In this document: in pieces, positions 1-60,033 of the stretch | How positions within the stretch are numbered: the first letter of the stretch is position 1 | Layout of the letters: every line of letters starts with the position of its first letter | Assembly (NCBI GenBank): GCA_964440935.1 | Contig: CAYTTY010000012.1 | Location: 12,873 to 76,872, forward strand | Origin: an uncultured Ignavibacteria bacterium | GTDB lineage: Bacteria > Zixibacteria > MSB-5A5 > WJJR01 | DNA: 64,000 nucleotides | Reading direction: 5' to 3' | The notes under the pieces: generated by a model | What the model was told of the DNA's origin: nothing | The model's database searches: none | What the model saw: the letters and a program-made list of their open reading frames with translations, nothing else | Translations under genes and position numbers: made by a program

Positions 1-1016
1 GATCGTCCGATCGCGTCGCCAATCGTGATTTTCCGTGAGAGATATAAGTCACACAGTGACTGATTCATGGTGCGCATGCCGAACTTCTGGCCGGCCTGAA
101 TCAAGCTGTATACCTGATGAATCTTATCGTCGCGAATGACGGCCCGGATAGCGGGCGTACAGATGAGCACTTCCAACGCCGGCGCGCGTCCGCCGCCAAT
201 CTTTGGAATCAACTGCTGGGACACGACCGCCTGCAAGACGAATGATAACGTAACCCGAACCTGCTCTTGCTGATTCACAGGGAACACGTCGACGATGCGA
301 TTGATCGACTCCGCGGCCGAGTTCGTGTGCAATGTCGCAAATGCCAGGTGACCGGTTTCGGAAATATTCAGCGCCGACTCGACCGTTTCGAGGTCGCGCA
401 TCTCACCGATCAGCACAACATCGGGATCCTCTCGTAAGGCGTATTTCAACGCTGAGGAGAACGACGGCGTGTCGGTGTAGACCTCACGCTGATTGACAAT
501 CGAACTTTCATGGCGGTGGAGATACTCGATCGGGTCTTCCACGGTGATGATGTGGCTGTACCGCTCCTTATTGATCTTATCGATCAACGCCGCCAGGGTT
601 GTCGATTTTCCCGATCCGGTTGGGCCGGTAACCAGAACAAGCCCCCGCGGCAGGTCGGCCAGTTCGGCAATGACCTTCGGGATACCGAGTTCTTCAAAGC
701 TGTTGATCTTGTACGGGATCTGCCGAATGGCGACGGCGACATTACCACGCTGGACAAACACATTACAACGGAACCGGCTCAGATTCTCAATACCGAACGA
801 GAGATCCAGCTCCCAGATTTCTTCGAATTTCTTCCGTTGCTTTTCATTCATCACGCTGTAGGCCAGCTTTTTGGTCTGATCTGGGGACAGCGGTTCCATA
901 TCGGTACGCTGCAATCGCCCATCGATGCGCAATTGCGGCGGTGAGCCGACCGTGAGATGCAAATCGGATGCACCACGTTCGTGCATCAACTCCAGTAGTT
1001 CGCGCAGTGTGACCAT
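1..1016 (-). CDS. pilT: Type IV pilus retraction ATPase PilT (twitching motility), 5' part of gene. The C-terminal end of the protein lies beyond window position 1.
   Basis: Translating the minus strand from the ATG at 1016 gives MVTLRELLELMHERGASDLHLTVGSPPQLRIDG...GLVLVTGPTGSGKSTTLAALIDKIN. The Walker A GPTGSGKST and overall PilT/PilU pattern are present. The ORF runs off the window start. Confidence 0.85.
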   Translation of the reverse strand, partial: MVTLRELLELMHERGASDLHLTVGSPPQLRIDGRLQRTDMEPLSPDQTKKLAYSVMNEKQRKKFEEIWELDLSFGIENLSRFRCNVFVQRGNVAVAIRQIPYKINSFEELGIPKVIAELADLPRGLVLVTGPTGSGKSTTLAALIDKINKERYSHIITVEDPIEYLHRHESSIVNQREVYTDTPSFSSALKYALREDPDVVLIGEMRDLETVESALNISETGHLAFATLHTNSAAESINRIVDVFPVNQQEQVRVTLSFVLQAVVSQQLIPKIGGGRAPALEVLICTPAIRAVIRDDKIHQVYSLIQAGQKFGMRTMNQSLCDLYLSRKITIGDAIGR

Positions 1017-1115
1017 AAGATGTCGTGACCGGGTGCCGTCCGCCCTCCGGGACACCCAGTATGCTCCTCTGTGAGATTATCGGTTCCGAATCCCCATGGC
1101 TTGACGGCTGGTTTT

Positions 1116-2810
1116 TTAGGACGATTCCGCCAGGACTTGCTCCAATGGGATGATCCCGTTTTTCATCTTATCGATAGCGGCCATTCGCAGGGTCATCATG
1201 CCCTCCTTGACCGCCTGTTGCCGAATTTGCTCCACCGAGGCGTCTTCCAGGATCATGCGTTCGATCGCCGTCGTCACCGGCATCACCTCGAAAATGCCGG
1301 TCCGTCCCGACATGCCGGTCTGATTGCAGTCAGAGCAACCCACCCCTTCAAAAATCTTTAAGTCGGCGATTTCCCCGGGCTCCAATGCCAGTTTCTCCAA
1401 GTGTTCATCGGTGACGCTCACTTCGTGTTTACACGACGAGCAAATCTTGCGAATCATTCGCTGGGCCATAATCAACTTCGTCGCCGATGCCACGAGATAT
1501 CCTGGAATGCCCATGTCGATGAGACGCGCGACCGTTGAGGGTGCGTCGTTCGTGTGTAATGTGGACAGCACCAAGTGGCCCGTGAGTGCCGCACGAATGG
1601 CAATCTCGGCCGTCTCGGTATCGCGGATCTCACCGACCATGATGATGTCGGGGTCCTGTCGCAAGAACGAACGCAGCGACTTGGCAAAAGTCAGACCGAT
1701 TTCGGTGCGGACGGCGACCTGATTGATTCCATCGAAGTTGAACTCGACCGGATCCTCGGCGGTCATGATGTTCACATCGCCGCTGTTCAATGTTTTCAGT
1801 GCTGAGTACAGGGTTGTCGTCTTACCCGATCCGGTTGGCCCGGTTACCAGGATCATCCCAAACGGCAGAGTGATCGCGTGCTGGAAATTCTTGAGCGCCA
1901 GGCCCGGGAAACCAAGCCGTGTCAGATCAGTCATGAGCGACTGCGGATCCAGAATTCGCATCACGACCTTCTCACCGAAGATCGTGGGCAACACCGACAC
2001 TCGCAGATCGATGGCGCGCTTGCCCATTTTGACTTTGATGCGTCCGTCCTGCGGCAGCCGGCGTTCGGAAATGTCGAGATCGGCCATGATCTTGACACGT
2101 GAGACAATGGCCGCACGGTATTTGAACGGCAGCGGCTCGGTCTCTTTCAAAACGCCGTCGACACGGTAGCGGACGCGGATGCGTTTTTCGTACGTCTCGA
2201 TATGAATGTCCGACGCGCCACTGCGAATCGCTTCCATGATGAGACCGTCCACCAGCCGCACCAGGGGTTTGTCCTGGACCTGAGATTGCAGGTCGGTTTC
2301 GTTGAAAGAGTCGTCAGTCTCGATGACTTCGAGTCCGCCCTCTTCCTCTTCCAATCCCTTGAGGAGATCGCCAATCCCACTGGCGTTTTTGTAGTACTGG
2401 TCAATGGCCTTCGTGATCGCCCGTTCAGGTGAGATAACGGGCTGAATGGTACAGCCGGTGATGAATTTCAGGGCATCGATGACATAAATATTGTGGGGAT
2501 CGCTGATCGCGACCACCAACGTCTTGTTCAGTTTGGAAATGGCGATGACGTTGAAGCGACGCGCGATGTCCTGCGGAATTAACTGAACAACTTCGGGATT
2601 GAGTTCAACGTCGGAGAGGCGCAATGCGCCGATGTTTAATTGGCGTCCGATGAAATGGGTGAGTTCATCTTCATCGCCGATGGCGCCCATCTTGAGCAGG
2701 ACATCGACGAATTTCTCGTGGGATTCCTTTTGCGTCTCAAGCGCCTGGGTGAGTTGGTCGGGCGTGATCTTGCCCGCTTTCACCAGCATATGGCCAAGTT
2801 CCTGAGACAT
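1116..2810 (-). CDS. pilB: Type IV pilus assembly ATPase PilB (GspE family)
   Basis: 564 aa. N-terminal GSPII_E_N-like region followed by a GspE ATPase core with Walker A GPTGSGKTTT and a C-terminal CxxC...CxxC zinc motif (CSSCKHE...CSDCNQTG). Confidence 0.85.
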   Translation of the reverse strand: MSQELGHMLVKAGKITPDQLTQALETQKESHEKFVDVLLKMGAIGDEDELTHFIGRQLNIGALRLSDVELNPEVVQLIPQDIARRFNVIAISKLNKTLVVAISDPHNIYVIDALKFITGCTIQPVISPERAITKAIDQYYKNASGIGDLLKGLEEEEGGLEVIETDDSFNETDLQSQVQDKPLVRLVDGLIMEAIRSGASDIHIETYEKRIRVRYRVDGVLKETEPLPFKYRAAIVSRVKIMADLDISERRLPQDGRIKVKMGKRAIDLRVSVLPTIFGEKVVMRILDPQSLMTDLTRLGFPGLALKNFQHAITLPFGMILVTGPTGSGKTTTLYSALKTLNSGDVNIMTAEDPVEFNFDGINQVAVRTEIGLTFAKSLRSFLRQDPDIIMVGEIRDTETAEIAIRAALTGHLVLSTLHTNDAPSTVARLIDMGIPGYLVASATKLIMAQRMIRKICSSCKHEVSVTDEHLEKLALEPGEIADLKIFEGVGCSDCNQTGMSGRTGIFEVMPVTTAIERMILEDASVEQIRQQAVKEGMMTLRMAAIDKMKNGIIPLEQVLAESS

Positions 2811-2878
2811 CCATCCTCACTCATTCAGCGCTACGTTGAAACACAATTCACCGTTCCCCCCGAGAAGAGAGAGCGGGA

Positions 2879-3361
2879 CTAATCTTTGAAGACGTCATCG
2901 ATCTTCGAGCCGGCCGACTCAGCAAACTGCGGATCCAACTCCGGTGCATTGTTTTCGGCCTGTGCACGCGTGAGAAGCTCTTTAAGCTTGTCGCTGGTTT
3001 CCTTGGCGTACAAACGCACCATCCCAATGGTCGTGCGATCATCGAAGACGATCGCGAGAATGCATCGTTCGCCGACCAGTGAAATGTGGATATGATCCTT
3101 GTGTCCCTGGTGAAACAGCACCGAGAATTCTGGTTCCCCGACGAGGCGGGCGATCTCCTTGGTCGACGCAAAGCTGCCCGCCAACAGGGCCGACAACGCG
3201 GTGGTATCGAGCGATTGCGTAAATCCCTGGCGTGTGATCAAGTGGCCATCCTTGTCGACCAGCAAGGCACACTTGGCTTCCGCCTTTTTGATCATCCGCA
3301 AAATGATCGCGTTGATCTGATCAATTTGTTCTTCCATCAGGACAAATGACTGAGACGACAT
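2879..3361 (-). CDS. mglB: MglB, roadblock/LC7-domain GTPase-activating partner of MglA. The ORF extends to 3391, but the ATG at 3361 (MSSQSFVLMEEQ...) avoids overlap with mglA.
   Basis: Strong similarity to Myxococcus MglB across its length (VLMEEQIDQINAI...LLVDKDGHLI...DTTALSALLAG...EFSVLFHQGHKDHIHISLVGERCILAIVFDDRTTIGMVRLYAKETSDKL). The acidic C-terminal tail is typical of MglB. Confidence 0.8.
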   Translation of the reverse strand: MSSQSFVLMEEQIDQINAIILRMIKKAEAKCALLVDKDGHLITRQGFTQSLDTTALSALLAGSFASTKEIARLVGEPEFSVLFHQGHKDHIHISLVGERCILAIVFDDRTTIGMVRLYAKETSDKLKELLTRAQAENNAPELDPQFAESAGSKIDDVFKD

Positions 3362-3372
3362 CGGCCACCTCC

Positions 3373-4365
<993 letters not shown>

Positions 4366-4739: not shown

Positions 4740-5714
4740 TCAGACCTCCTCCAGGACCGCGTAGCTGTGGCGGCGCCGCTGGATATACTTGAGCATCATG
4801 TCGCGTGCTTGTGTCAGGCGCACACCGACCAAATCATCAACCTCGTAGTCGGTCAGCACGCCCAACCAGAAGTCATCAACCGCTTCCAGAATCACCCGTC
4901 CGGCGCTGGAGCGTATCTCGATGCGCTGCGGTTCCACTTCTCCACCGCGCGAAAGGCAGTACTGATTGAAACGGACCATCTCGATGGAGGTCGGCGCCCA
5001 ATACTCGACCGCCCCGGTGTAATCCTGGCGTTGCCAGAACGCCAATGGCAGCCCTTCGCGATCGACCATCCAGCACATCCGAATGCCGGTATATTCGCCG
5101 ACGTAGGCGACCGCCGCATCGAGATCGGGCGTATTGTCGGGGGCTGCTCCGTGTGATGCGGTTCGTCCGGCTGAATTCGCCGGTCGGGTGGCGACCAGTT
5201 TCGGCGCCGCTGTAACCGTGCCTGTGGTGCTTGATCCCGAAGGGCGGGGCGTCGAGTAGCTCGTGGACATGGCGAACCGCGGCTTTGGCGCCGGCTCGGC
5301 ATAGACGATCTTCCAAATCGCTCTGAGGACTAAGGGCGCCGAAAACACATGCAAAAGGACGGTGAACGGATACGACCACATCGCCATCGACGCCGTGTCC
5401 TGAAATCCGTAGTTGTTATTGAATGCGGCCAAACCGGCGAACAGCAGCGCGCACACCAGGCGATAAACCACCGTCATTCCTGAGGCAATGAACCGTTGCG
5501 ATCCTTTTAGCGTGGGCACCAGGAACAGAAGGGCCACGAAGTAGATCAGCCATTCGACCAAGACGATCGCCGGATGGAATTTGAAGTGGCCCAGACCAAC
5601 CGTTTTCGGATACAGCAGGAGTGGCAGGACGGCCAACACACCGGTCCACAAGATGATCTGACGGACGGCGACAGCGGTGCCGGGTCGTATGGATTGTCGT
5701 CTGGGCATAGTCAT
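4740..5714 (-). CDS. Membrane-anchored protein (about 4 predicted TM helices) with a C-terminal roadblock/LC7-like domain
   Basis: The N-terminal ~150 aa are hydrophobic (LWTGVLAVLPLLLY..., LIYFVALLFLVPTL..., LVCALLFAGLAAF..., FTVLLHVFSAPLVL). Then comes a Pro/Ser/Thr linker, followed by a roadblock-like domain of ~130 aa (GIRMCWMVDREGLPLAF...RIEIRSSAGRVILEAVDDFWLGVLTD). Confidence 0.5.
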   Translation of the reverse strand: MTMPRRQSIRPGTAVAVRQIILWTGVLAVLPLLLYPKTVGLGHFKFHPAIVLVEWLIYFVALLFLVPTLKGSQRFIASGMTVVYRLVCALLFAGLAAFNNNYGFQDTASMAMWSYPFTVLLHVFSAPLVLRAIWKIVYAEPAPKPRFAMSTSYSTPRPSGSSTTGTVTAAPKLVATRPANSAGRTASHGAAPDNTPDLDAAVAYVGEYTGIRMCWMVDREGLPLAFWQRQDYTGAVEYWAPTSIEMVRFNQYCLSRGGEVEPQRIEIRSSAGRVILEAVDDFWLGVLTDYEVDDLVGVRLTQARDMMLKYIQRRRHSYAVLEEV

Positions 5715-14923: not shown

Positions 14924-15150
14924 GGAGAATTACTAGCACCCGGCTTCAGCCGGGTGATTGCGACAACCCAACCCTCCTCCCCGAAAACCGTTGAAACGGT
15001 TCTCGGAGAAATATTCTTTCCGCCGCAACCACCGCTCTGAAGAGCGGTGTTAAAAAGCATAAAGTCTGCAATGGCGCTCACCTTGTCGGTCCTGTGGAAA
15101 ACCCTTTGACGCGCCGCCTCGCCGGGAGGCTCGCCCTTGATCGGGATCTC

Positions 15151-18219: not shown

Positions 18220-18490
18220 GATCAGTTCCCCCTTCGGCGGAGAGGCAATATAGGAACGCGCCGCTGCGGAGGAAACCCCGCAGCGGGGAAATCGGAGTGG
18301 ACAGAGTGGATGGTAGCCTCACAATAGAGCGATTATCAGATGTCCGTCCGATTGAGAAAGAGCGAGACTTGTTTCACTTGGTATTCAGAATGAAGCGAAT
18401 CTACCTCTGAATGGTTGAATGTGGGCACGAGAATCTCATCCCACCGCAAGCGGTGGGGCACCCCGCTCCGAAATGTGGCACCGGGACAGG

Positions 18491-32747: not shown

Positions 32748-34334
32748 ATGCCAAGACAGATTTTGATTGCTGATAAGATTGCCGACGATGGGATCAATTT
32801 CCTGAGATCGAAACCCGAGTATGATGTCACGGTGACAACCGGACTCGCCGAAGATGAACTGTGCCGGGTCATCGAGCCGTGTCATGCCGTGGTTGTGCGC
32901 AGTGCCACGAGCATCAGTGAACGTGTCATATCATCAGCACCCCAACTGGCCGTGATCGGACGCGCGGGCATTGGTATCGATAACATTGACATTGAAGCGG
33001 CAACGGCGCGCGGCGTCGTGGTGCTGAATACACCCGATGCCAACGCGACGACAACAGCAGAGCTGACGATCGCGCATTTGCTGTCGTTGAGTCGCAACCT
33101 GCCCACCGCCGATCAGTCGGTACGCAACGGCCAGTGGGAACGCAGTGCCCTCACCGGGATTGAAGTGGCTGGGAAGATTCTGGGCATCGTGGGGTATGGT
33201 ACGATCGGCCGGTTGGTTGCCAAGCGTGCTAAGGCGCTGGAGATGTCATTGCTGGTGCATGATCCCTACGTCACCGATGACGTCATTGCGGAGACCGGCG
33301 GTACCGCCGTGGATTTAAACACTCTTTTGTCGCAGTCGGACTATGTCACATTACATGCCCCCGTGACGGCGCAAACGCGTTCGATGATCGGCGCAAAGCA
33401 GTTATCCCTGATGAAGCCGAGCGCACGGCTGATTAACTGCGCGCGCGGGGCCTTGGTCGACGAAGAAGCGCTAATCCAGGCGTTGGAAGCCGGGACAATT
33501 GCCGGCGCCGCGCTCGACGTGTACGCCAATGAACCGCCTGAGGGTTCGCGTCTGTTGACATTTCCCAATGTTGTCTTCACACCGCATTTGGGCGCATCGA
33601 CGCGTGAAGCACAGGTCGCTGCCGGAATGCAAATTGCAACACAGATCGATACGTTTCTGCGTTCGGGTGAAGCGATTAATGCCGTTAATCTCTCCCCCGT
33701 CTCGCGTGAGCAACTGGCCAAACTCAAACCGTTTCAGAATCTGGCGCGCGCGCTGGGACGGTTGCTGTCGACACTGGCGCCTGAAGCGCTCAAGCGTGTT
33801 GAGATTACACTGGCAGGCGGACCATCCGGTGTCAATGTCAGTCATGTCGCCACCGAGACGCTGATTGGAATTCTCGCCGATCATCATCGCGGGCCGGTCA
33901 ACCAGGTCAACGCGGCGCATCTCGCTAGGCGCCAGGGATTGAGTGTTGTCGAATCACGCGCGGCGGAATCCTCTGAGTATCACACGCTCCTCCAAGTCGT
34001 CGGCAAGACCACCAACCATGAGCTGTCGGTTGCCGGAACGTTGTTTGATGAACGGCATCCGCGACTGGTGCGCATTGATGATTTGAAGATCGAAGCGATT
34101 CTCGAAGGGCAACTACTGATTACACGCCATAGCGATCGCCCCGGTGTCGTGGCCGCCATCAGCGGTGCGATTGCCGAGGCCGGTGTGAACATCACGCGTA
34201 TGCACCTGGGGCCTGTTGGTGATCAGGGATTGGCAGTGGCCGTCATTGGTCTCGACCAGCCGTTACCGACCAGCGCGCGCGATGCGATCCTCTCCATCGA
34301 TACCATTCTGAACATTCACGAGCTGGCGCTGTGA
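32748..34334 (+). CDS. serA: D-3-phosphoglycerate dehydrogenase with ASB and ACT regulatory domains
   Basis: 528 aa. 2-hydroxyacid dehydrogenase NAD motif GIVGYGTIGRLVAKRA, catalytic ...CARGALVDEEAL...DVYANEP..., and a C-terminal ACT domain (LLITRHSDRPGVVAAISGAIAEAGVNI). Confidence 0.9.
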   Translation: MPRQILIADKIADDGINFLRSKPEYDVTVTTGLAEDELCRVIEPCHAVVVRSATSISERVISSAPQLAVIGRAGIGIDNIDIEAATARGVVVLNTPDANATTTAELTIAHLLSLSRNLPTADQSVRNGQWERSALTGIEVAGKILGIVGYGTIGRLVAKRAKALEMSLLVHDPYVTDDVIAETGGTAVDLNTLLSQSDYVTLHAPVTAQTRSMIGAKQLSLMKPSARLINCARGALVDEEALIQALEAGTIAGAALDVYANEPPEGSRLLTFPNVVFTPHLGASTREAQVAAGMQIATQIDTFLRSGEAINAVNLSPVSREQLAKLKPFQNLARALGRLLSTLAPEALKRVEITLAGGPSGVNVSHVATETLIGILADHHRGPVNQVNAAHLARRQGLSVVESRAAESSEYHTLLQVVGKTTNHELSVAGTLFDERHPRLVRIDDLKIEAILEGQLLITRHSDRPGVVAAISGAIAEAGVNITRMHLGPVGDQGLAVAVIGLDQPLPTSARDAILSIDTILNIHELAL

Positions 34335-35014
34335 CATCCGATAGTCCACAAACACAGCGCATCGACACCGTCATCTTCGACTGCGACAGCACGTTGTCGT
34401 CGATTGAAGGCATCGACGAATTGGCCGAACGTGCGGGCGTTGGCGAGCAGATTCGTGAACTGACCAAGGCGGCGATGGCAGGTGACATTAAACTCGAAGA
34501 CGTGTATGGTAAGCGTCTCGATTTGATTCGTCCCAATGCAGATGATCTGGCGTGGCTGGGCCGGCGATACTGCGAGATGATCGTTGATGGTGCACACCAC
34601 GTGATTGCCACACTTCAAGTGACGGGACGGGCAGTGCATATTGTCAGCGGTGGGGTATTACAGGCGCTTCACGTGCTCGCGGAGGAATTGAAGATAACTC
34701 GATCACATGTCGTGGGTGTCCCGGTGACTCTGTCTGACGACGGCACATATATCGGCTATGACGCGACGGCTCCCACGTCACGCTCAGGCGGCAAGACCGA
34801 AGTCATTCGCGGCATTACTGCGAATGGACGACGCGCGGTAATGATCGGTGATGGAGTCACTGATTTGGAGGCGCAGAGTCTGGGGATACCGGTGATCGGG
34901 TTTGGTGGTGTTGTGATACGTGAGGCCGTCAAGGCACAGGCCGATGCGTGGGTCAATGGGCCATCGTTGTTGGGTGTGTTAGCGACAATTGAGAGGTTGG
35001 AGATGGAGTTCTAG
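34331..35014 (+). CDS. serB: Phosphoserine phosphatase (HAD superfamily)
   Basis: HAD motif I VIFDCDSTL and a C-terminal GDGVTD motif. Translationally coupled to serA (start overlaps the serA stop). Confidence 0.75.
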   Translation: MTSDSPQTQRIDTVIFDCDSTLSSIEGIDELAERAGVGEQIRELTKAAMAGDIKLEDVYGKRLDLIRPNADDLAWLGRRYCEMIVDGAHHVIATLQVTGRAVHIVSGGVLQALHVLAEELKITRSHVVGVPVTLSDDGTYIGYDATAPTSRSGGKTEVIRGITANGRRAVMIGDGVTDLEAQSLGIPVIGFGGVVIREAVKAQADAWVNGPSLLGVLATIERLEMEF

Positions 35015-35025
35015 TGTACCTTGTG

Positions 35026-35054
35026 GCCCTGATGGCGCTTTTTGCCATCAGGGC
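35026..35054. repeat. 29-bp hairpin GCCCTGATGGC-GCTTTTT-GCCATCAGGGC. It is an inverted partner of 35466-35494.
   Basis: Perfect 11-bp stem. The same stem with a reverse-complemented loop recurs at 35466-35494, and the flanking 5 bp on each side are also similar. Not followed by a U-tract. Confidence 0.6.
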
Positions 35055-35086
35055 TTGCGTAACTCACATTGGCTGTCACTGCGATT

Positions 35087-35397
35087 TAGAGTGAATGTCA
35101 GAAGTATTTTCCGTTTGGGATTGCGATCCGTACTGTCACCAGGGTTCCCCGCTGTCATCCCCTCGAAAGAGGGGATCCATTTTGCTTTTGGCCACCACTC
35201 ACCGTCTGAACTTGGATTCACGCTTTCGCCCTTCGGCTCGCTCAGGACAAGCGGGAATGACAACGAGTTATAGCAATTATCAAAATTCCGTTCCGGTGTT
35301 CGGGGCCGTCGCATGGCCGTCCAGGCCAGAGGGTACGGGCGAGGCGCCCGTACTGCATCGCCTTCTCAATCGGAAGATAGTTCTGAGAATCGCTCTA
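35087..35397. mobile_element. Degenerate tandem MITE-like remnants carrying IS630-type terminal repeats (about 35089-35267 and 35271-35395)
   Basis: TA+GAGTGAATGTCAGAAGTATTTTCCGTTTGGG at 35087-35119 resembles the IS left end GAGCGATTGTCA... and the RC of the MITE end at 43642-43653. TA+TAGCAATTATCAAAATTCCGTTCCGG at 35269-35300 resembles the MITE left end at 43398. TGAGAATCGCTC+TA at 35384-35397 resembles the right end TGACAATCGCTC+TA. Confidence 0.45.
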
Positions 35398-35465
35398 CAA
35401 AGCCGTTCTAGCGGTTTCTTGTGTTTTTGATATGTCTCAGTAAAGACGAAGCGTGAGTCAAGCGA

Positions 35466-35494
35466 GCCCTGATGGCAAAGAACGCCATCAGGGC
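35466..35494. repeat. 29-bp hairpin GCCCTGATGGC-AAAGAAC-GCCATCAGGGC. Inverted partner of 35026-35054.
   Basis: See 35026-35054. Together they form ~39-bp imperfect inverted repeats flanking a ~411-bp non-coding segment. Confidence 0.6.
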
Positions 35495-35520
35495 CATAAA
35501 TCTGCTCGGTGTTCCGTTTA

Positions 35521-36633
35521 GAGCGATTGTCAGATTAAATTTCCGATTGCGGCGGTTTGGCTGGTGCGTTGTGGGTTGTCGATCACATCGAGAATGGCGT
35601 GATCCAAGCGTTCGAGTAATTGGTCGAGATGGCGACAGATATAGTTGTTGAACCAGGTGGCCTTCATCACCAGCCAGATGCGTTCAATCGGGTTGAGATC
35701 GGGGGAGTAGGGCGGCAGATACATCACCTCCCACCCGTGCCAATTCAACGATTTGCGTTTGTGCCAGGAGGCATTGTCGACAATGAGGATGTTGCGTCGT
35801 CGCTGGACGGTCACCGATCGGTCTGCTTCATTGAGGAACGCTTGGAAGGTGTCCGAGTCCGAATGAGACGCTTCGATGGCAAAGAACTCGCCGGTGCGGG
35901 GACAGACCATCCCCATGACATTCATCCGCAGGTGATCGCCGTTTTTGGTGCTGCGGGTCTTGTGACCCTTTTTGTCCCAGCGCCGTCGGGGTCGCGGATC
36001 CCCCTCGAATCCCGACTCGTCGGCAAACCATAACTCGACGTCGGGATCCTGGCTAAGTTCCTGTAGCTGTTGCCGAAACGCCTCCCGCAGAACCTCATCC
36101 TGACGATCCGGCCACGGTTGTGGCACCTTGAGGGCAAAGCCCTGCCGATGGAAGAATCGCACCACCGTTTCATAGCTGCACTCCACCTGATAGGTCTCAG
36201 AGAGGTAGCCGTGGAACGCCTTGGCGGTCCAAAACGTGCGGTCCGCCTGTTCGGGGTCGCTGATCAGACGGGCGAACTGCGTGGCTTGTTCGCCTCGAAG
36301 AATCGCTGTCCGACCGGGACGTTTCTGCACAATCAACCCATCCACACCGCGGTCGTTGAATGCTTTAACCCAACTGCGCAGCGACCGCTCCGTCACCACC
36401 AACGCCGCGCACACGGTGTCACGCGGTGTGCCGGCCAGCAGAAACTGAATCGCGGTACAGCGGACCGACGTTTCGGGTGAACCCACACGCCCCGCCCCCT
36501 TCAACTCCTGGATACTCGCGTTCTCCGGATTCGGCTCGAGTGCGCGGCGTGCCATGAACACACCATGCCGTAATCACTTACAAAAGTCTAGAATTTTCTG
36601 GCCCCAAACGGAAAATATTTATGACAATCGCTC
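35521..36633 (-). mobile_element. IS630-family (Tc1/mariner-like) insertion sequence, 1113 bp, with terminal inverted repeats GAGCGATTGTCA...TGACAATCGCTC and a TA target-site duplication (35519-35520, 36634-36635)
   Basis: The left end TA|GAGCGATTGTCAGATTAAATTTCCG and right end CGGAAAATATTTATGACAATCGCTC|TA are inverted repeats. A TA duplication is the IS630 hallmark. The element contains a single DDE transposase ORF. Confidence 0.8.
35530..36561 (-). CDS. IS630-family DDE transposase
   Basis: 343 aa. N-terminal HTH region, then D..D..E: ...LWFADESGF..., ...NILIVDNASWHK..., ...YLPPYSPDLNPIERIW.... The stop codon lies inside the left TIR. Confidence 0.85.
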   Translation of the reverse strand: MFMARRALEPNPENASIQELKGAGRVGSPETSVRCTAIQFLLAGTPRDTVCAALVVTERSLRSWVKAFNDRGVDGLIVQKRPGRTAILRGEQATQFARLISDPEQADRTFWTAKAFHGYLSETYQVECSYETVVRFFHRQGFALKVPQPWPDRQDEVLREAFRQQLQELSQDPDVELWFADESGFEGDPRPRRRWDKKGHKTRSTKNGDHLRMNVMGMVCPRTGEFFAIEASHSDSDTFQAFLNEADRSVTVQRRRNILIVDNASWHKRKSLNWHGWEVMYLPPYSPDLNPIERIWLVMKATWFNNYICRHLDQLLERLDHAILDVIDNPQRTSQTAAIGNLI

Positions 36634-37037
36634 TATTCCTCGTCAAGGACGTCATCAGCGGTGAATGCGCCGCGTACGTGCGTGATGGCACGATGACCCG
36701 AGGAGTCCTGTGGGGCAACGGTGACGACATCGAAGCGGTAGCCGCCGGGCATGTCGGGGGCGTTTTCGATATAGGCGCCGGCGGCGCGGATGATGGCCGA
36801 TTGCTTTTGGGGTGTGATCCATTCCAGTGGATCACCAAAAGAGACCGTGCGCGCGGATTTGACTTCGACAAACACAATCGTTTCACCATCGCGAACGATC
36901 AGATCGATTTCGTTACGGGTATACGGTGAACGCCAGTTACGGGACAGAATCAGACAGCCATTCGATTCGAGATAGCGCGCGGCTTGCTCCTCTCCATCGC
37001 GTCCGGTGTGCTGGTGATGGTCGGGAGACGGGGTCAT
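36633..37037 (-). CDS. yraN: YraN-family (UPF0102) endonuclease
   Basis: GEEQAARYLESNGCLILSRNWRS...EIDLIVRDGETIVFVEVKSR matches the YraN signature. It lies downstream of rnhB, as in the conserved rplS-rnhB-yraN arrangement. The stop codon (RC of 36633-36635) is built from the IS end base plus the TA duplication. Confidence 0.75.
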   Translation of the reverse strand: MTPSPDHHQHTGRDGEEQAARYLESNGCLILSRNWRSPYTRNEIDLIVRDGETIVFVEVKSARTVSFGDPLEWITPQKQSAIIRAAGAYIENAPDMPGGYRFDVVTVAPQDSSGHRAITHVRGAFTADDVLDEE

Positions 37038-37048
37038 TGTTGTGGCTC

Positions 37049-37705
37049 TTAGATTTCCAGACGATTCTGTTGCCAGTCGCGCACAGGTGTGAATGACTTA
37101 CGGTGTATCGGAGACGGACCCAATCGCGATAACGCGGTGAGGTGTTCCGGCGTCGCGTACCCTTTATGACGCACAAACCCGTATCCGGGAAACTGCCGCT
37201 CGTAATCTTCCATGATGCGGTCGCGGATTTCTTTGGCAATGATCGATGCAGCGCCAATGGAGATGCACAACTTGTCACCGTCGACAATGGCGCGTTGGGG
37301 TATGTCCAGATTGGGAATGCGGAACTTACCGTCAACCAAAACCGCTTCGGCTTTCACCGGCAGCTCATCGAGTGCGAGACGCATTGCCGTGTAGCTGGCC
37401 TGCAGGATGTTCTGGGAATCGATCCCGGCCGGATCGACCAGACCGACTCCCCATGAGAGCGCTTTCTCACAGATATTAGGATACAGAGCAATGCGTTGGG
37501 CTGCACTGAGGAGCTTGGAATCGGTGATGCCGGTCCCGTCGAAATCCTGCGGCAAGATCACGGCGACTGCAACAACCGGACCGGCTAACGGACCGCGTCC
37601 GACTTCATCGACGCCGGCCACACAGCGCCAGCCGCGATCCCAGAATTGGCGTTCGTACTCCCAGCGATCGGATTGGACATTCTGCCTGGGGACCCTCTGC
37701 GCCAT
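37049..37705 (-). CDS. rnhB: Ribonuclease HII
   Basis: VAGVDEVGRGPLAGPVVAVAVIL...DSKLLSAAQR... shows the RNase HII catalytic motifs. Confidence 0.85.
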   Translation of the reverse strand: MAQRVPRQNVQSDRWEYERQFWDRGWRCVAGVDEVGRGPLAGPVVAVAVILPQDFDGTGITDSKLLSAAQRIALYPNICEKALSWGVGLVDPAGIDSQNILQASYTAMRLALDELPVKAEAVLVDGKFRIPNLDIPQRAIVDGDKLCISIGAASIIAKEIRDRIMEDYERQFPGYGFVRHKGYATPEHLTALSRLGPSPIHRKSFTPVRDWQQNRLEI

Positions 37706-37727
37706 GCCAATGTCCAGCGTCCCGTGA

Positions 37728-38084
37728 TCAGGCTCCGGTGTCGGCTTTCTTTTCTTTCACCCGCGCGGCCCGTCCACGCCGCTGACGCAGATAGTAGAGT
37801 TTGGAGCGACGGACCTTGCCTCTGCGCATGGTTTCCACCTTGGCAACATTTGGCGAGTGAAATGGAAAGACACGTTCCACGCCGATGCCCTGGGAGACTT
37901 TGCGCACGGTAAACGTGGCGCCCGCGCCGGTGCCGCGCTTTTGGATGACGGTCCCCTGGAACACCTGGATACGTTCCTTGTCGCCCTCTTTGATGCGGAC
38001 GTGGACCTTGACCATATCCCCCGGGGCGAAATCCATTGTCCGGTCGGCCGGTGTGTTCAGTCCGACAGTTGTCAGATCAACCAT
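37728..38084 (-). CDS. rplS: 50S ribosomal protein L19. The start is taken at MVDLTTV (38084), overlapping the trmD stop; the longer ORF to 38183 is unlikely.
   Basis: ...[84 protein letters not shown] matches L19 throughout. Confidence 0.85.
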
Positions 38085-38871
38085 GGTCATTCTCCTTACG
38101 TGTGTCTTGATCATGCGACCGACCGGTCGCGGGTGAATCGGACATCGCGGCGGGAGCCGACTGGCTCCCGCCGCTCTTATCATCGGCCTCTGAACTCAGC
38201 AGTTCAGGCCGGAATCGTTCGGTCGTCAGACGTGCCTGCTGCCGTCGCCACGCGCGCACATTGGCGTGATGCCCCGAGACCAGAACCGACGGTACTTCTA
38301 ACCCCCGCCAACTCTGCGGACGCGTGTAATGCGGTGCACCGAGACCGTTGATGACAAACGAGTCTTCGCGTCCGGAATCATCGTTGCCTAAGAATCCGGG
38401 CAGGCGACGCGCGACGGCATCGACGATCACCATCGCCGGCAATTCGCCTCCGGTGAGCACATAGTCGCCAATACAGAGACGCAGGGGCTTGAAGTACTCA
38501 AAGATGCGTTCATCAATTGCTGTGTAATGCCCGCACACAAAGATCAAACGGTTGCTCGTGGTTAACGAGTTGGCCTTGTCTTGATCGAACAGCTCACCGC
38601 GCGCGGCGGGGATGATGATCGTCGCATCGTCATCGCCGCGGATCGCCTCAATGGCACGCGCAATCGGCTCGGCCATCAGGATCATCCCGCCACCGCCGCC
38701 AAAGGGTGTGTCGTCGACCGAACGATGCGGATCATCGGTGAAATCGCGCAAGTCGTGCACATTGACCGACAACACACCACGCTCCAATGCGCGCGCCATC
38801 ATCGACTCGCGCAAAAAGCCGGTAAACATACCGGGAAATGTGGTGATGACGTCAATCTGCATCGTGCTCAA
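38077..38871 (-). CDS. trmD: tRNA (guanine37-N1)-methyltransferase TrmD, with a ~40-aa low-complexity C-terminal tail
   Basis: [13 protein letters not shown]...[17 protein letters not shown]...[14 protein letters not shown] is the SPOUT/TrmD pattern. Confidence 0.9.
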
Positions 38872-39942: not shown

Positions 39943-40066
39943 TGTGTTACCTCCCTACTAATGACCTATGATGTCTACAAACTGAATTCGCGTTTGCTCA
40001 CCGTTCTTTGTAGCGCGGCCGCCTCGGCCGCTCTGAGCAGGCGAGGCGCCTGCACTACAATAATCG

Positions 40067-41389: not shown

Positions 41390-41773
41390 GCTACTTCACC
41401 CTCAAGGACATCCGTACGGGGACGCCTTCGACTACAAACGTTAAAACAGCGCCGACCGATGGACCTGGATCGGCGCAAATGGCTAAGGTACAAAAGATTT
41501 GGAGGAAATCAATTGGGATTGTGGGGGGTGAAGAAGGGCCAAGTGTCAGCCACCCAAACGGCTCCGACAGCAATCCATTGTATCACAACATCTTAGATGC
41601 CATCGATACTGTCATCCCCGCGAGTATCTCGTCCAGCGAAGTGGACGAGATGCGAAAGCGGGGATCCAGTGGCATTGGGGGAGAGGCGACCCCTCATCTC
41701 CCGGGTTTCACCCTGCAACGATTCGGCCGCTTCCGCTGTAGAATATTGCCCTGCGGGATATTGAAACTGGAAG

Positions 41774-43263: not shown

Positions 43264-43397
43264 TTGTTCACCGGCATTGTCATTCTGAACGGAGTGAGGA
43301 AACTGCTGCTTGCGCGTGGCGGGGGTATCAAGAGCAGATCCCTCGCTTCGCTCGGGATGACACATTGATCTTGGTACACCGGGCATCGGTTGTTGTA

Positions 43398-43653
43398 TAG
43401 CAATTGTCATAAATCCTTTCCGTTTGGATCAGGGTGCCACGGGCCTTTAGGGGTGTGTCGCACCCCCCCCGAGAATCAGAGCCTTCGGGAGGGCGAGCCT
43501 CCCGGCGAGCCGCAACGGCATGTTCCACACGGCGGCTCGGCGGGAGCCTCGCCCTCCCCAGTCTGAGGTGATGATAGACAGCAGGTTTTTCAACACGCCC
43601 CTTTAGGCCCGTGGTATTCAAATACAAACGGACAATACTTCTGACAATAGCTC
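43398..43653. mobile_element. Non-autonomous MITE (256 bp) with IS630-type ends TAGCAATTGTCA...TGACAATAGCTC, flanked by a TA duplication (43396-43397, 43654-43655)
   Basis: The left end TATAGCAATTGTCATAAATCCTTTCCGTTTGG closely matches the RC of the IS630 right end (36604-36635). The right end CAAACGGACAATACTTCTGACAATAGCTCTA matches the IS right end. The interior has no ORF and forms long hairpins, for example GGGAGGGCGAGCCTCCCGGCGAGCCGC...GCGGCTCGGCGGGAGCCTCGCCCTCCC. Confidence 0.6.
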
Positions 43654-43829
43654 TAGTGTCGTGTCCCGGAAATAGCTTAAAGAAGTCGCTTCCACGCCGC
43701 GTGCCGTCATGCGCCCTCGCATGACGGCTATCTTCTTTCCGGACAAGGCGTCACCCGAGGGCGGGTGACGCCACGGGGTACAATTTCGTATAGAAACTGA
43801 TGAACCGTATTTCTGGGACACGACACTAG
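43652..43829. repeat. 15-bp inverted repeat CTAGTGTCGTGTCCC...GGGACACGACACTAG enclosing two perfect 11-bp-stem hairpins (43703-43728 and 43747-43772)
   Basis: GCCGTCATGCG-CCCT-CGCATGACGGC and GGCGTCACCCG-AGGG-CGGGTGACGCC lie between the 15-bp inverted repeats, immediately abutting the MITE's right end. Confidence 0.5.
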
Positions 43830-43835
43830 AACGGT

Positions 43836-43864
43836 CGCCTCGGCCGTTTGGTCCGGCCGAGGCG
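43836..43864. repeat. Perfect 11-bp-stem hairpin CGCCTCGGCCG-TTTGGTC-CGGCCGAGGCG, containing the CGGCCGAGGCGGCCGC motif also found at 40015-40031
   Basis: Lies 3' of the PASTA gene (minus strand) but has no T-tract. It shares a 16-nt GC-rich core with a hairpin between rpsP and ffh. Confidence 0.45.
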
Positions 43865-43927
43865 GCCGCTCTACATGTTGTCGAGATCTGCGTGCGGACA
43901 GGAATGACCGCACCGCTTACGATCGAG

Positions 43928-59670: not shown

Positions 59671-60033
59671 AGATATTATACGGAGAAAACGTGTGGTGGT
59701 AAACCGTGCTGAGCGGAGATGATGTAAGAGAATGAGGGACTCACAACCTCGTGTAGGTGCGGCGAAGAGCCGGACCTACGCGATGCACCTATGGGTTTTT
59801 CAACACGCCGCAAGGGGTGCGTTGAAAAAGGTGCTTGATTGCTGAGAACATGCATTTGTAGGGGCGTATTGAATACGCTCCCTTCACGTAACGGTAACAG
59901 TGACAGGGCGCACTCTCAGTACGTCCCTACGAATGATCGTCCCGTCAACATGCGTTAGGATTGCGCCTCAGGCCTTTTCAACACGCCCCAAGGTCAGTGG
60001 TACCCCGCAAAAGAAAATCACATCGATTTGAAC
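59671..60033. repeat. Hairpin-rich intergenic region containing two copies of the dispersed motif TTTTCAACACGCC (59797-59809, 59975-59987). A third copy lies at 43587-43599.
   Basis: Hairpins include GGTTTTTCAACACGCC-GCAAGG-GGTGCGTTGAAAAAGG (59796-59829) and GGGGCGTATTGAATACGCTCCC (59861-59882). No ORF is present. Confidence 0.5.

Follow-up and report, generated by a model that had tools for sequence, protein, structure and literature searches.

REP units, an IS630-type MITE and an IS630 element in the spacer between two convergent operons of an uncultured bacterium of the Zixibacteria lineage

We describe here a segment of about 470 bp (positions 35026-35494) in a 64,000-nucleotide stretch of DNA from an uncultured bacterium labelled Ignavibacteria and placed by GTDB in the Zixibacteria (contig CAYTTY010000012.1 of assembly GCA_964440935.1); the whole stretch is referred to below as the window, and coordinates given without a contig name are its own. 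No gene lies in the segment, which is the spacer separating two convergent operons (serA-HAD, plus strand; ffh...rnhB-yraN, minus strand), and we hold it probable, at about 80%, that it is a mosaic and not one element: two copies of a repetitive extragenic palindromic (REP) sequence and a 311-bp miniature inverted-repeat transposable element (MITE) of the IS630 type, with a full IS630-family insertion sequence (IS) as their neighbor. From left to right the order is a left REP unit (35021-35088), the MITE, which we call MITE1 (35087-35397), original spacer DNA (35398-35431), a right REP unit (35432-35499) and the IS (35519-36635). No new mechanism is required to account for this arrangement, the REP, MITE and IS here being known kinds of mobile DNA; what is mildly new is a REP system with a long conserved tail and its own transposase in the Zixibacteria, and a MITE whose cargo is built from other small hairpin repeats.

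The original prediction, made from the letters of the window, had read the segment as a hairpin-bounded unit filled with IS630-derived terminal fragments, that is, a composite MITE or else a graveyard or landing pad for this family of IS. Its observations are confirmed and its interpretation is partly supported. There is indeed mobile-DNA debris beside an IS, the intact element at 35519-36635 adjoining the segment, but the outer hairpins are dispersed REPs, only the right one of which is present at the orthologous locus of a relative, and the supposed graveyard resolves into the two ends of one intact MITE together with cargo that is kept in a second copy of it.

MITE1 and its neighboring IS630 element

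MITE1 is delimited by two terminal inverted repeats (TIRs), at 35087-35119 on the plus strand and 35365-35397 on the minus strand, each counted with its TA. The two face each other and each ends in TA, with the element proper at 35089-35395 and the TA duplication at 35087-88 and 35396-97. The TIR profile used for comparison was built from the two ends of the neighboring IS only and is therefore non-circular; an earlier profile that included the MITE1 ends gave circular E-values and was dropped. With the IS-only profile the left TIR (88% identical to the IS right end) is found at E = 1.1e-4 and the right TIR (81% identical to the IS left end and 84% to the IS right end) at E = 3.9e-5, and these are the best non-self matches in the window, ranking above the ends of a second IS630-type MITE, MITE2 (43396-43655). 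The IS630-type repeats beside TA dinucleotides that had been predicted are thus present, and their alignment to the IS ends is significant when scored statistically. At least three such sites had been proposed: 35087-35119 is the left TIR, 35384-35397 is the tip of the right TIR, but the remaining site (35269-35300) is not significant against the IS (E = 1.4). Far from being scattered fragments, the two strong matches mark either end of one 311-bp MITE that is intact. MITE1 has the features expected of an IS630-type MITE, being small and non-coding, with TIRs like those of an autonomous IS of the same genome, and with a TA duplication for which an empty site can be pointed to in a relative (see below).

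As had been suspected, the 111-residue open reading frame (ORF) at 35095-35430 is spurious and the segment non-coding: the ORF has no Pfam match and no homologue among 5.8 billion proteins, a collection in which no MITE copies surfaced as spurious genes either. An 88-residue ORF also has no Pfam match.

The IS itself lies on the minus strand and is intact and full-length, with the domains, TIRs and TA duplication of the IS630 family. Its transposase ORF (35530-36561) encodes a 343-residue protein with Pfam matches to DDE_3 (8.6e-37) and to the helix-turn-helix (HTH) families HTH_33/32/29/23/28, and its 35-nt TIRs (35519-35553 and 36601-36635, with TA at 35519-20 and 36634-35) are 80% identical to each other. 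Its insertion site is the TA within the stop codon of yraN, where the target TA and the terminal G of the IS together form TAG and leave the reading frame untouched; the stop before insertion would read TAA, as it does in the closest relative. An autonomous IS630-family element would thus have entered a stop-codon TA and rebuilt a stop. MITE1 may in turn have been mobilized in trans by a transposase like the one encoded 130 bp away, binding the terminal repeats of about 33 nt. [quoted passage not shown]

Comparison with the IS and with MITE2 (given as 43398-43653 in the original prediction) reveals terminal repeats in common and nothing else, since between the TIRs MITE1 matches neither of them. 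We rejected MITE1 as a simple deletion derivative of the IS, as only the TIRs align with it. There is, however, a second full homologue, at 5012-5326 of contig L012 from the metagenome-assembled genome (MAG) WJJR01 ('Ca. Zixiibacteriota Bin_224'), so that the MITE is not without a further copy; the L012 locus is unrelated to that of the window, and only the MITE and a REP match there.

The interior of MITE1 would be non-coding cargo made of small hairpin modules that are also present elsewhere in the genome. The leftmost is a hairpin of a family that we call B, GGATCCCC..GGGGATGACA (35153-35178, minus strand), which contains ATCCCCTC-GAAA-GAGGGGAT at 35157-35176 (z = -3.4). A second family-B hairpin, GGATTCACGCTT...AAGCGGGAATGACA, lies in the opposite orientation (35214-35262, plus strand) and has a 23-nt insert in its loop relative to L012; folded alone, this stretch does no better than shuffles (z = 0.25). 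There follows the internal TIR-like relic TATAGCAATTATCAAAATTCCGTTCCGG (35269-35296, plus strand), which is closest to the left end of MITE2 and, though not significant against the IS-only profile, gives a weak match to a profile of IS and MITE2 ends (E = 0.008). The rightmost module is a degenerate double hairpin of a family D, of the GTAG..CTAC type (35309-35357, plus strand), 65% identical to 40011-40059 and containing GTACGGGCG-AGG-CGCCCGTAC at 35333-35353 (fold z = -2.6). Both internal hairpins of the original prediction (35157-35176 and 35333-35353) are therefore to be found.

The L012 copy carries both TIRs and all of the internal modules. The first family-B hairpin is kept with a compensatory change, ATCCCCGC/GCGGGGAT, in which the hairpin ATCCCC.C....G.GGGGAT has the two-sided change TC/GA to GC/GC; the second hairpin is present and ends in GGAATGACA; the relic is conserved as TTATAGCAAT..AATTCCGTTCCGG; and the CGAGGCGCCCGTAC hairpin is present, with the GTAG...CTACA ends kept. 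Because the TIR-like third site and the internal hairpins occur in both copies, this MITE family already had them when the two lineages diverged, and we regard them as inherited cargo of the family and not as local insertions.

The presence of several stable hairpins, with one compensatory change between the two MITE copies, also raises the question as to whether the segment is a structured non-coding RNA with the hairpins as its domains. This is extremely improbable. No Rfam family is matched anywhere in the window at gathering thresholds, and in 34950-35560 none is matched even when E is relaxed to <= 1. The hairpins come from distinct repeat families that are themselves dispersed, the orthologous locus lacks the segment, and a single promoter-like site was found, as many as chance would give. 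A scan for tRNA and tmRNA genes found none.

Placed against known systems, the IS and MITE1 resemble ISY100 of Synechocystis (PMC2170065) and bacterial MITEs (PMC2229807) in the DDE_3 domain, the N-terminal HTH, the TIRs of about 33 nt and the TA duplication, and MITE1 is like bacterial MITEs (PMC2229807) in being a short non-coding derivative that has only its ends in common with the autonomous element. It is unlike simple internal-deletion MITEs in that its interior consists of small hairpin repeat modules and a relic third TIR.

An empty orthologous site in a relative

MAGs labelled Zixibacteria are the source of the best protein matches to this region and of its closest DNA relative, a 3,746-bp contig of MAG WJJR01 that we call L013. 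In the window the spacer is bounded on the left by serA (32748-34334, plus strand) and the final gene of the serA operon (34331-35014, plus strand), an HAD-IB or phosphoserine-phosphatase-like gene whose product matches Pfam Hydrolase/HAD, has homologues named HAD-IB phosphatase or phosphoserine phosphatase, and finds its best homologues in Zixibacteria. On the right it is bounded by yraN (UPF0102; 36633-37037, minus strand), the final gene of the ffh-rpsP-rimM-trmD-rplS-rnhB-yraN operon. L013 carries a HAD homologue that is 80% identical, and it aligns with the window in three blocks: 6-1765 with 33250-35010 (82%), 1822-1922 with 35394-35496 (81.6%, or 82%), and 1997-3745 with 36634-38382 (87%).

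The HAD-yraN spacer of L013 is 228 bp and contains the right REP only, without the MITE and without the IS. Homology restarts at the TA of the MITE right end (..CTC-TA-CAAAGCCGTT in the window, ..ATC-TA-CAAAACCGTT in L013) and again at the TA of the IS end, 36634, and within the middle block the original spacer DNA of the window (35398-35431) is orthologous to L013 1826-1860. L013 has no left REP; its HAD gene is followed by another hairpin, CACCCGGCT-GAAG-CCGGGTG. A more distant contig, L020 (HAD 68% identical), keeps the gene order and has none of the repeats. When the flanking proteins were looked up by exact match, the only records to appear were short-read contigs from this organism that end inside the repeats, and there was no polymorphic empty site among them. 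Two short-read contigs (Logan, SRR7048227, same organism) end in this way, L001 just past the MITE1 left TIR (window 35122) and L002 in the middle of the IS (window ~36160); the break at the MITE1 TIR is consistent with repetition and gives no copy count.

The right REP is the oldest of the insertions, because it is common to the window and L013, and MITE1, the IS and probably the left REP arrived after the split from the L013 lineage. The REP pair is favored to be two separate insertions, since the orthologue has only one arm. A spacer between convergent operons tolerates insertions, and this one would have collected three unrelated kinds of mobile DNA.

The REP-A family and a REP-associated transposase

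The two outer hairpins, GCCCTGATGGC-N7-GCCATCAGGGC at 35026-35054 and 35466-35494, each consist of an 11-bp perfect stem with a 7-nt loop and lie 411 bp apart, as first noted. Their folds are stable (-24.5 and -25.6 kcal/mol; z = -4.7 and -4.9). The exact stem 11-mer occurs four times in the window, always in these hairpins, and with one mismatch allowed six occurrences are found against 1.5 expected, a number reached in none of 100 shuffles. The loops are GCTTTTT and AAAGAAC and had been taken for reverse complements of each other, but GTTCTTT, the reverse complement of the second, agrees with the first at only 5 of 7 positions; the inverted repeat around the segment, for its part, is longer than the 39 bp or so proposed, extending over 47 nt at 87% identity (35021-35067 / 35453-35499) and, with gaps, over about 66 nt at 76%.

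Both hairpins are members of a dispersed REP family unrelated to IS630. We call it REP-A, and its unit is at least 47 nt long: GTG-GCCCTGATGGC-loop-GCCATCAGGGC-TYGCRTAACTCAC. The left unit (plus strand) has a GTGG head, the hairpin, the conserved tail TTGCGTAACTCAC and a subfamily extension of about 20 nt that ends at the TA of the MITE, whereas the right unit (minus strand), orthologous to the sole REP of L013, has the head ATGG. The two are head-outward, the left one 8 nt past the HAD stop codon and the right one, with the IS removed, 24 nt past the yraN stop, and both are oriented as the gene that they follow. Over 66 nt the left unit agrees with the L013 unit at 84% and with its own partner at 76%. 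It follows that what moves in this subfamily is a unit of about 66 nt, and that recent local duplication of the right copy did not produce the left one.

We scanned for the hairpin pattern in one genome per species (the species representatives, with the source genome not among them) and recovered 17 loci, comprising eight unrelated single matches in other phyla and nine contigs of MAG WJJR01, with 11 perfect-stem copies. The flanks of these are conserved also, with GTG 5' of the stem and TYGCRTAACTCAC 3' of it. A profile search of the MAG loci adds four more diverged copies, giving 15 on nine contigs of this fragmented MAG, all of them between ORFs. The head tetranucleotide is GTGG in 18 of 21 distinct units and GTGC in two, the other being the ATGG of the window's right copy, so the family has the GTAG, or a close variant of it, that marks REPs. 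In all nine clear contexts away from the transposase genes described next (seven in the MAG and two in the window), as judged by crude longest-ORF calls, the unit is downstream of a gene and co-oriented with it.

A REP-associated tyrosine transposase (RAYT) is encoded in the same MAG. The ORF at 403-1026 of contig L019 matches the NCBIfam equivalog NF047646, 'REP-associated tyrosine transposase', at 87.6 bits (cut-off 80), as well as Pfam Y1_Tnp, and its product aligns with E. coli TnpA-REP (PDB 4ER8) over the HUH and tyrosine motifs (PEHVHLL / PEHMHCI and SYIEWNPV / DYIYINPV). It is bracketed by inverted REP-A units at 359-408 (plus strand) and 1016-1067 (minus strand). Three RAYT homologues with 56-61% identity, on contigs L025 to L027, are flanked by variants of the form GTGGCCCTGACC(N3-6)GGTCAGGGC-TYGCRTAACTCA (L025 219-263 and 889-924; L026 127-237 and 834-941; L027 696-863 and 1530-1635), which agree with REP-A in head, tail and the seven pairs at the base of the stem but differ in the apex, two pairs being changed on both sides. 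The relatives therefore have inverted REP copies flanking a RAYT gene, and the REPs and RAYTs appear to co-vary, a pattern that would be expected if each enzyme recognizes its own hairpin. By analogy with E. coli REP and TnpA-REP, the units would be recognized as single-stranded hairpins and spread by a single-copy HUH/Y1 enzyme of the RAYT kind.

Two further observations concern these contigs. The L019 RAYT gene is annotated as a hypothetical protein, and five REP-A units lie around it (77-121, 246-292, 359-408, 1016-1067 and 1345-1396); the variants of L026 are head-outward doublets, and those of L027 form arrays of three and two.

REPs are described in surveys as having a terminal GTAG, with GTGG in some families and reported for one GTAG family (PMC3733652), and as lying downstream of genes, between convergent or unidirectional ORFs, with inverted dimers 20-100 bp apart and a single-copy RAYT (PMC3733652, PMC5581495). 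REP-A is like the REP/BIME (bacterial interspersed mosaic element) and TnpA-REP (4ER8) of E. coli and the GTAG-tagged REPs (PMC3733652, PMC3479197, PMC5581495) in being a GC-rich palindrome of short length whose 5' tetranucleotide is conserved; like them it is intergenic, mostly 3' of genes, dispersed, solo or in inverted dimers, and found inverted around a single Y1/HUH transposase gene. It is unlike them in its long perfect 11-bp stem followed by the 13-nt conserved tail TYGCRTAACTCAC, part of which is able to pair with the GTG head, in its occurrence in the phylum Zixibacteria, and in being strictly co-oriented, over the few contexts available, with the gene upstream.

That co-orientation bears on another reading, in which the hairpins are terminators or 3' stabilizers of the convergent operons that do not move and resemble each other through a local inverted duplication. 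In its favor are their very stable stems, their position 8 and 24 nt past stop codons, and a co-orientation with the upstream gene that holds in all nine contexts. However, the stems are followed by TTGCGTAAC and TCGCTTGAC, neither of which is a U-tract such as an intrinsic terminator has, and a terminator scan does not call either stem; identical units with the conserved 13-nt non-stem tail occur at unrelated loci and around a RAYT gene, and presence or absence differs between relatives. We thus consider this improbable, although it fails only in its claim that the hairpins are not mobile, and an RNA-level role is compatible with their being REPs: once in place, REP-A units may be tolerated, and are possibly useful, in the role of stem-loops at the 3' end of the mRNA of the gene before them, a role already proposed for REPs in general.

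A different relationship between the two units is suggested by the REPINs of Pseudomonas fluorescens SBW25 (PMC3116915, PMC3337134), which are two inverted REPs with a short spacer between them. With MITE1 removed, the window pair has this form and could fold into a long hairpin, the arms being 66 nt long, inverted, 76% identical and separated by about 34 nt. The pair could accordingly have moved as one head-outward, REPIN-like doublet of about 170 bp that MITE1 later split, L013 having lost the left arm. Head-outward doublets with 60-125 nt between the hairpins flank the RAYT genes of L026 and L019, and dimers 20-100 bp apart are given as typical of REP families (PMC3733652). Unlike the SBW25 elements, however, most REP-A copies in the MAG are single, and doublet mobility is putative here; L013 has the right arm and the spacer, with an unrelated hairpin where the left arm should be, and the left arm resembles the L013 unit (84%) more than its partner (76%). 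On balance the doublet is unlikely, if worth keeping in mind, and we retain two separate REP insertions.

The same comparisons leave the composite MITE of the original prediction very unlikely, whether as a nested element spanning 35021-35499 with the hairpin arms for TIRs or as a graveyard of degenerate IS630 ends. A 47-nt inverted repeat does bound the block and IS630-type TIR matches do lie inside it, but the arms belong to a separate family that occurs solo and beside RAYT, L013 has one arm only, no second copy of the block is present in any searched sequence, and the two strong TIR matches belong together as the TA-bounded ends of one intact element, whose internal pieces are conserved cargo.

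Other identities for the REP-A hairpins were considered and dropped: an integron attC site (the tail GTTACGC does not fit GTTRRRY), a CRISPR repeat (the copies are dispersed and not arrayed), and IS200/IS605-type ends, or palindrome-associated transposable elements (PATE; the copies are inverted around a gene and mostly solo).

Several points weigh against the mosaic reading that we prefer. The only MITE1 copies found are one in the window and one in another genome, and a scan of Joint Genome Institute (JGI) metagenomes with a 20-mer from the MITE1 right TIR gave two matches, both by chance within AT-rich coding sequence. The empty site is clean on one side only, the right, because the sequence to the left of the MITE is REP that L013 lacks. 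A profile search found no REP-A copies in the 64-kb window beyond these two; the perfect stems of the MAG copies were imposed by the search pattern, and crude ORF calls underlie the orientation count. A tblastn search found no RAYT in the window, among the RAYT homologues listed, leaving aside the MAG's own, none exceeds 61% identity and the nearest three come from other samples or assemblies, so the link between REP and RAYT rests on a relative and not on the source genome.

Small hairpin repeats, target sites and implications

Other small hairpin repeats are scattered through the window. Outside the MITEs, family B is seen at 41610-41680 (minus strand) and 43336-43362 (plus strand), the latter 33 nt to the left of MITE2, and the motif GGRATGACA occurs six times in the window against 1.6 expected. 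Family D outside MITE1 is found at approximately 40010-40058 and at 43827-43875 as a compact double hairpin, GTAG...CTAC, with GTAGCGCGGCCGCCTCGGCCGC-TCTGA-GCAGGCGAGGCGCCTGCACTAC; it resembles a minimal REP doublet, and one copy lies between rpsP and ffh. A hairpin CAYCCGGCT-GAAG-CCGGRTG is present at L013 1786-1805, L012 ~4990-5010 and window 14940-14953, and its two MAG copies differ by a compensatory C-G / T-A exchange; in L012 it abuts the MITE1 copy, and in L013 it occupies the place of the window's left REP. The hairpin motif TTTTTCAACACGCC / GGTGCGTTGAAAAA is intergenic at 59796-59829 and 59972-59989 and also subterminal in MITE2 (43585-43600). MITE2 itself is 260 bp, with inverted ends of 63 nt at 75% identity and an internal 27-nt hairpin at 93% (43487-43558). 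A solo IS630-type TIR, TAGAGCGATTATCAGATGTCCGTCCGATTGA, at 18325-18355 (E = 0.001-0.06) has no partner within 600 bp and may be a truncated MITE or IS end.

The proximity of IS630-type elements to such hairpins recalls the landing pad of the original prediction, in the sense that these elements would prefer TA sites beside REP-like hairpins. In the window MITE1 is 20 nt from REP-A, the IS is 24 nt from the right REP-A and MITE2 is 33 nt from a family-B hairpin, and in L012 MITE1 is 90 nt from REP-A and directly abuts another hairpin. IS1397 and ISKpn1 are IS elements inserted in or beside REPs. ISPpu9 of P. putida is a further case of an IS that targets REPs (PMC8450116), and the window resembles it in having transposable elements within tens of bases of REP hairpins; elements of that type differ, however, in belonging to other IS families with a demonstrated REP specificity, where those of the window are known by proximity. 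The pattern here consists of three or four insertions, each 20-90 nt from a small hairpin repeat, there is no common target motif beyond TA, and all of them also fit a simpler view, in which gene-free spacers at the ends of operons are the only places where either kind of element persists. We consider a target preference doubtful.

We think it similarly doubtful, though worth stating, that the systems are layered, with a MITE1 cargo made wholly of REP-like modules from at least two other families, homing of IS630-type elements to TA sites beside REPs, and REP-A, spread by RAYT and oriented strictly as the gene before it, doubling as an RNA element at the 3' ends of operons. If this were true, REPs would hitch-hike on a DDE transposon.

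For the genome at hand, the annotation of this region should read REP, MITE, REP and IS630, and not a gene, an RNA or a new composite element, and the repeats explain why short-read assemblies of this organism break at this locus. Set against the empty orthologous site, the dated series of insertions is usable for studying how REPs, MITEs and ISs accumulate at operon ends. The survey cited names REP families, in the portion used here, for Proteobacteria, Cyanobacteria, Chloroflexi and the Planctomycetes-Verrucomicrobia-Chlamydiae (PVC) group (PMC3733652). A REP/RAYT system, with REP variants that appear to co-vary with their transposases, is here documented in the Zixibacteria, which go unmentioned in the cited portions of the REP/RAYT literature. 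This is a phylum that, to our knowledge, is known only from MAGs.

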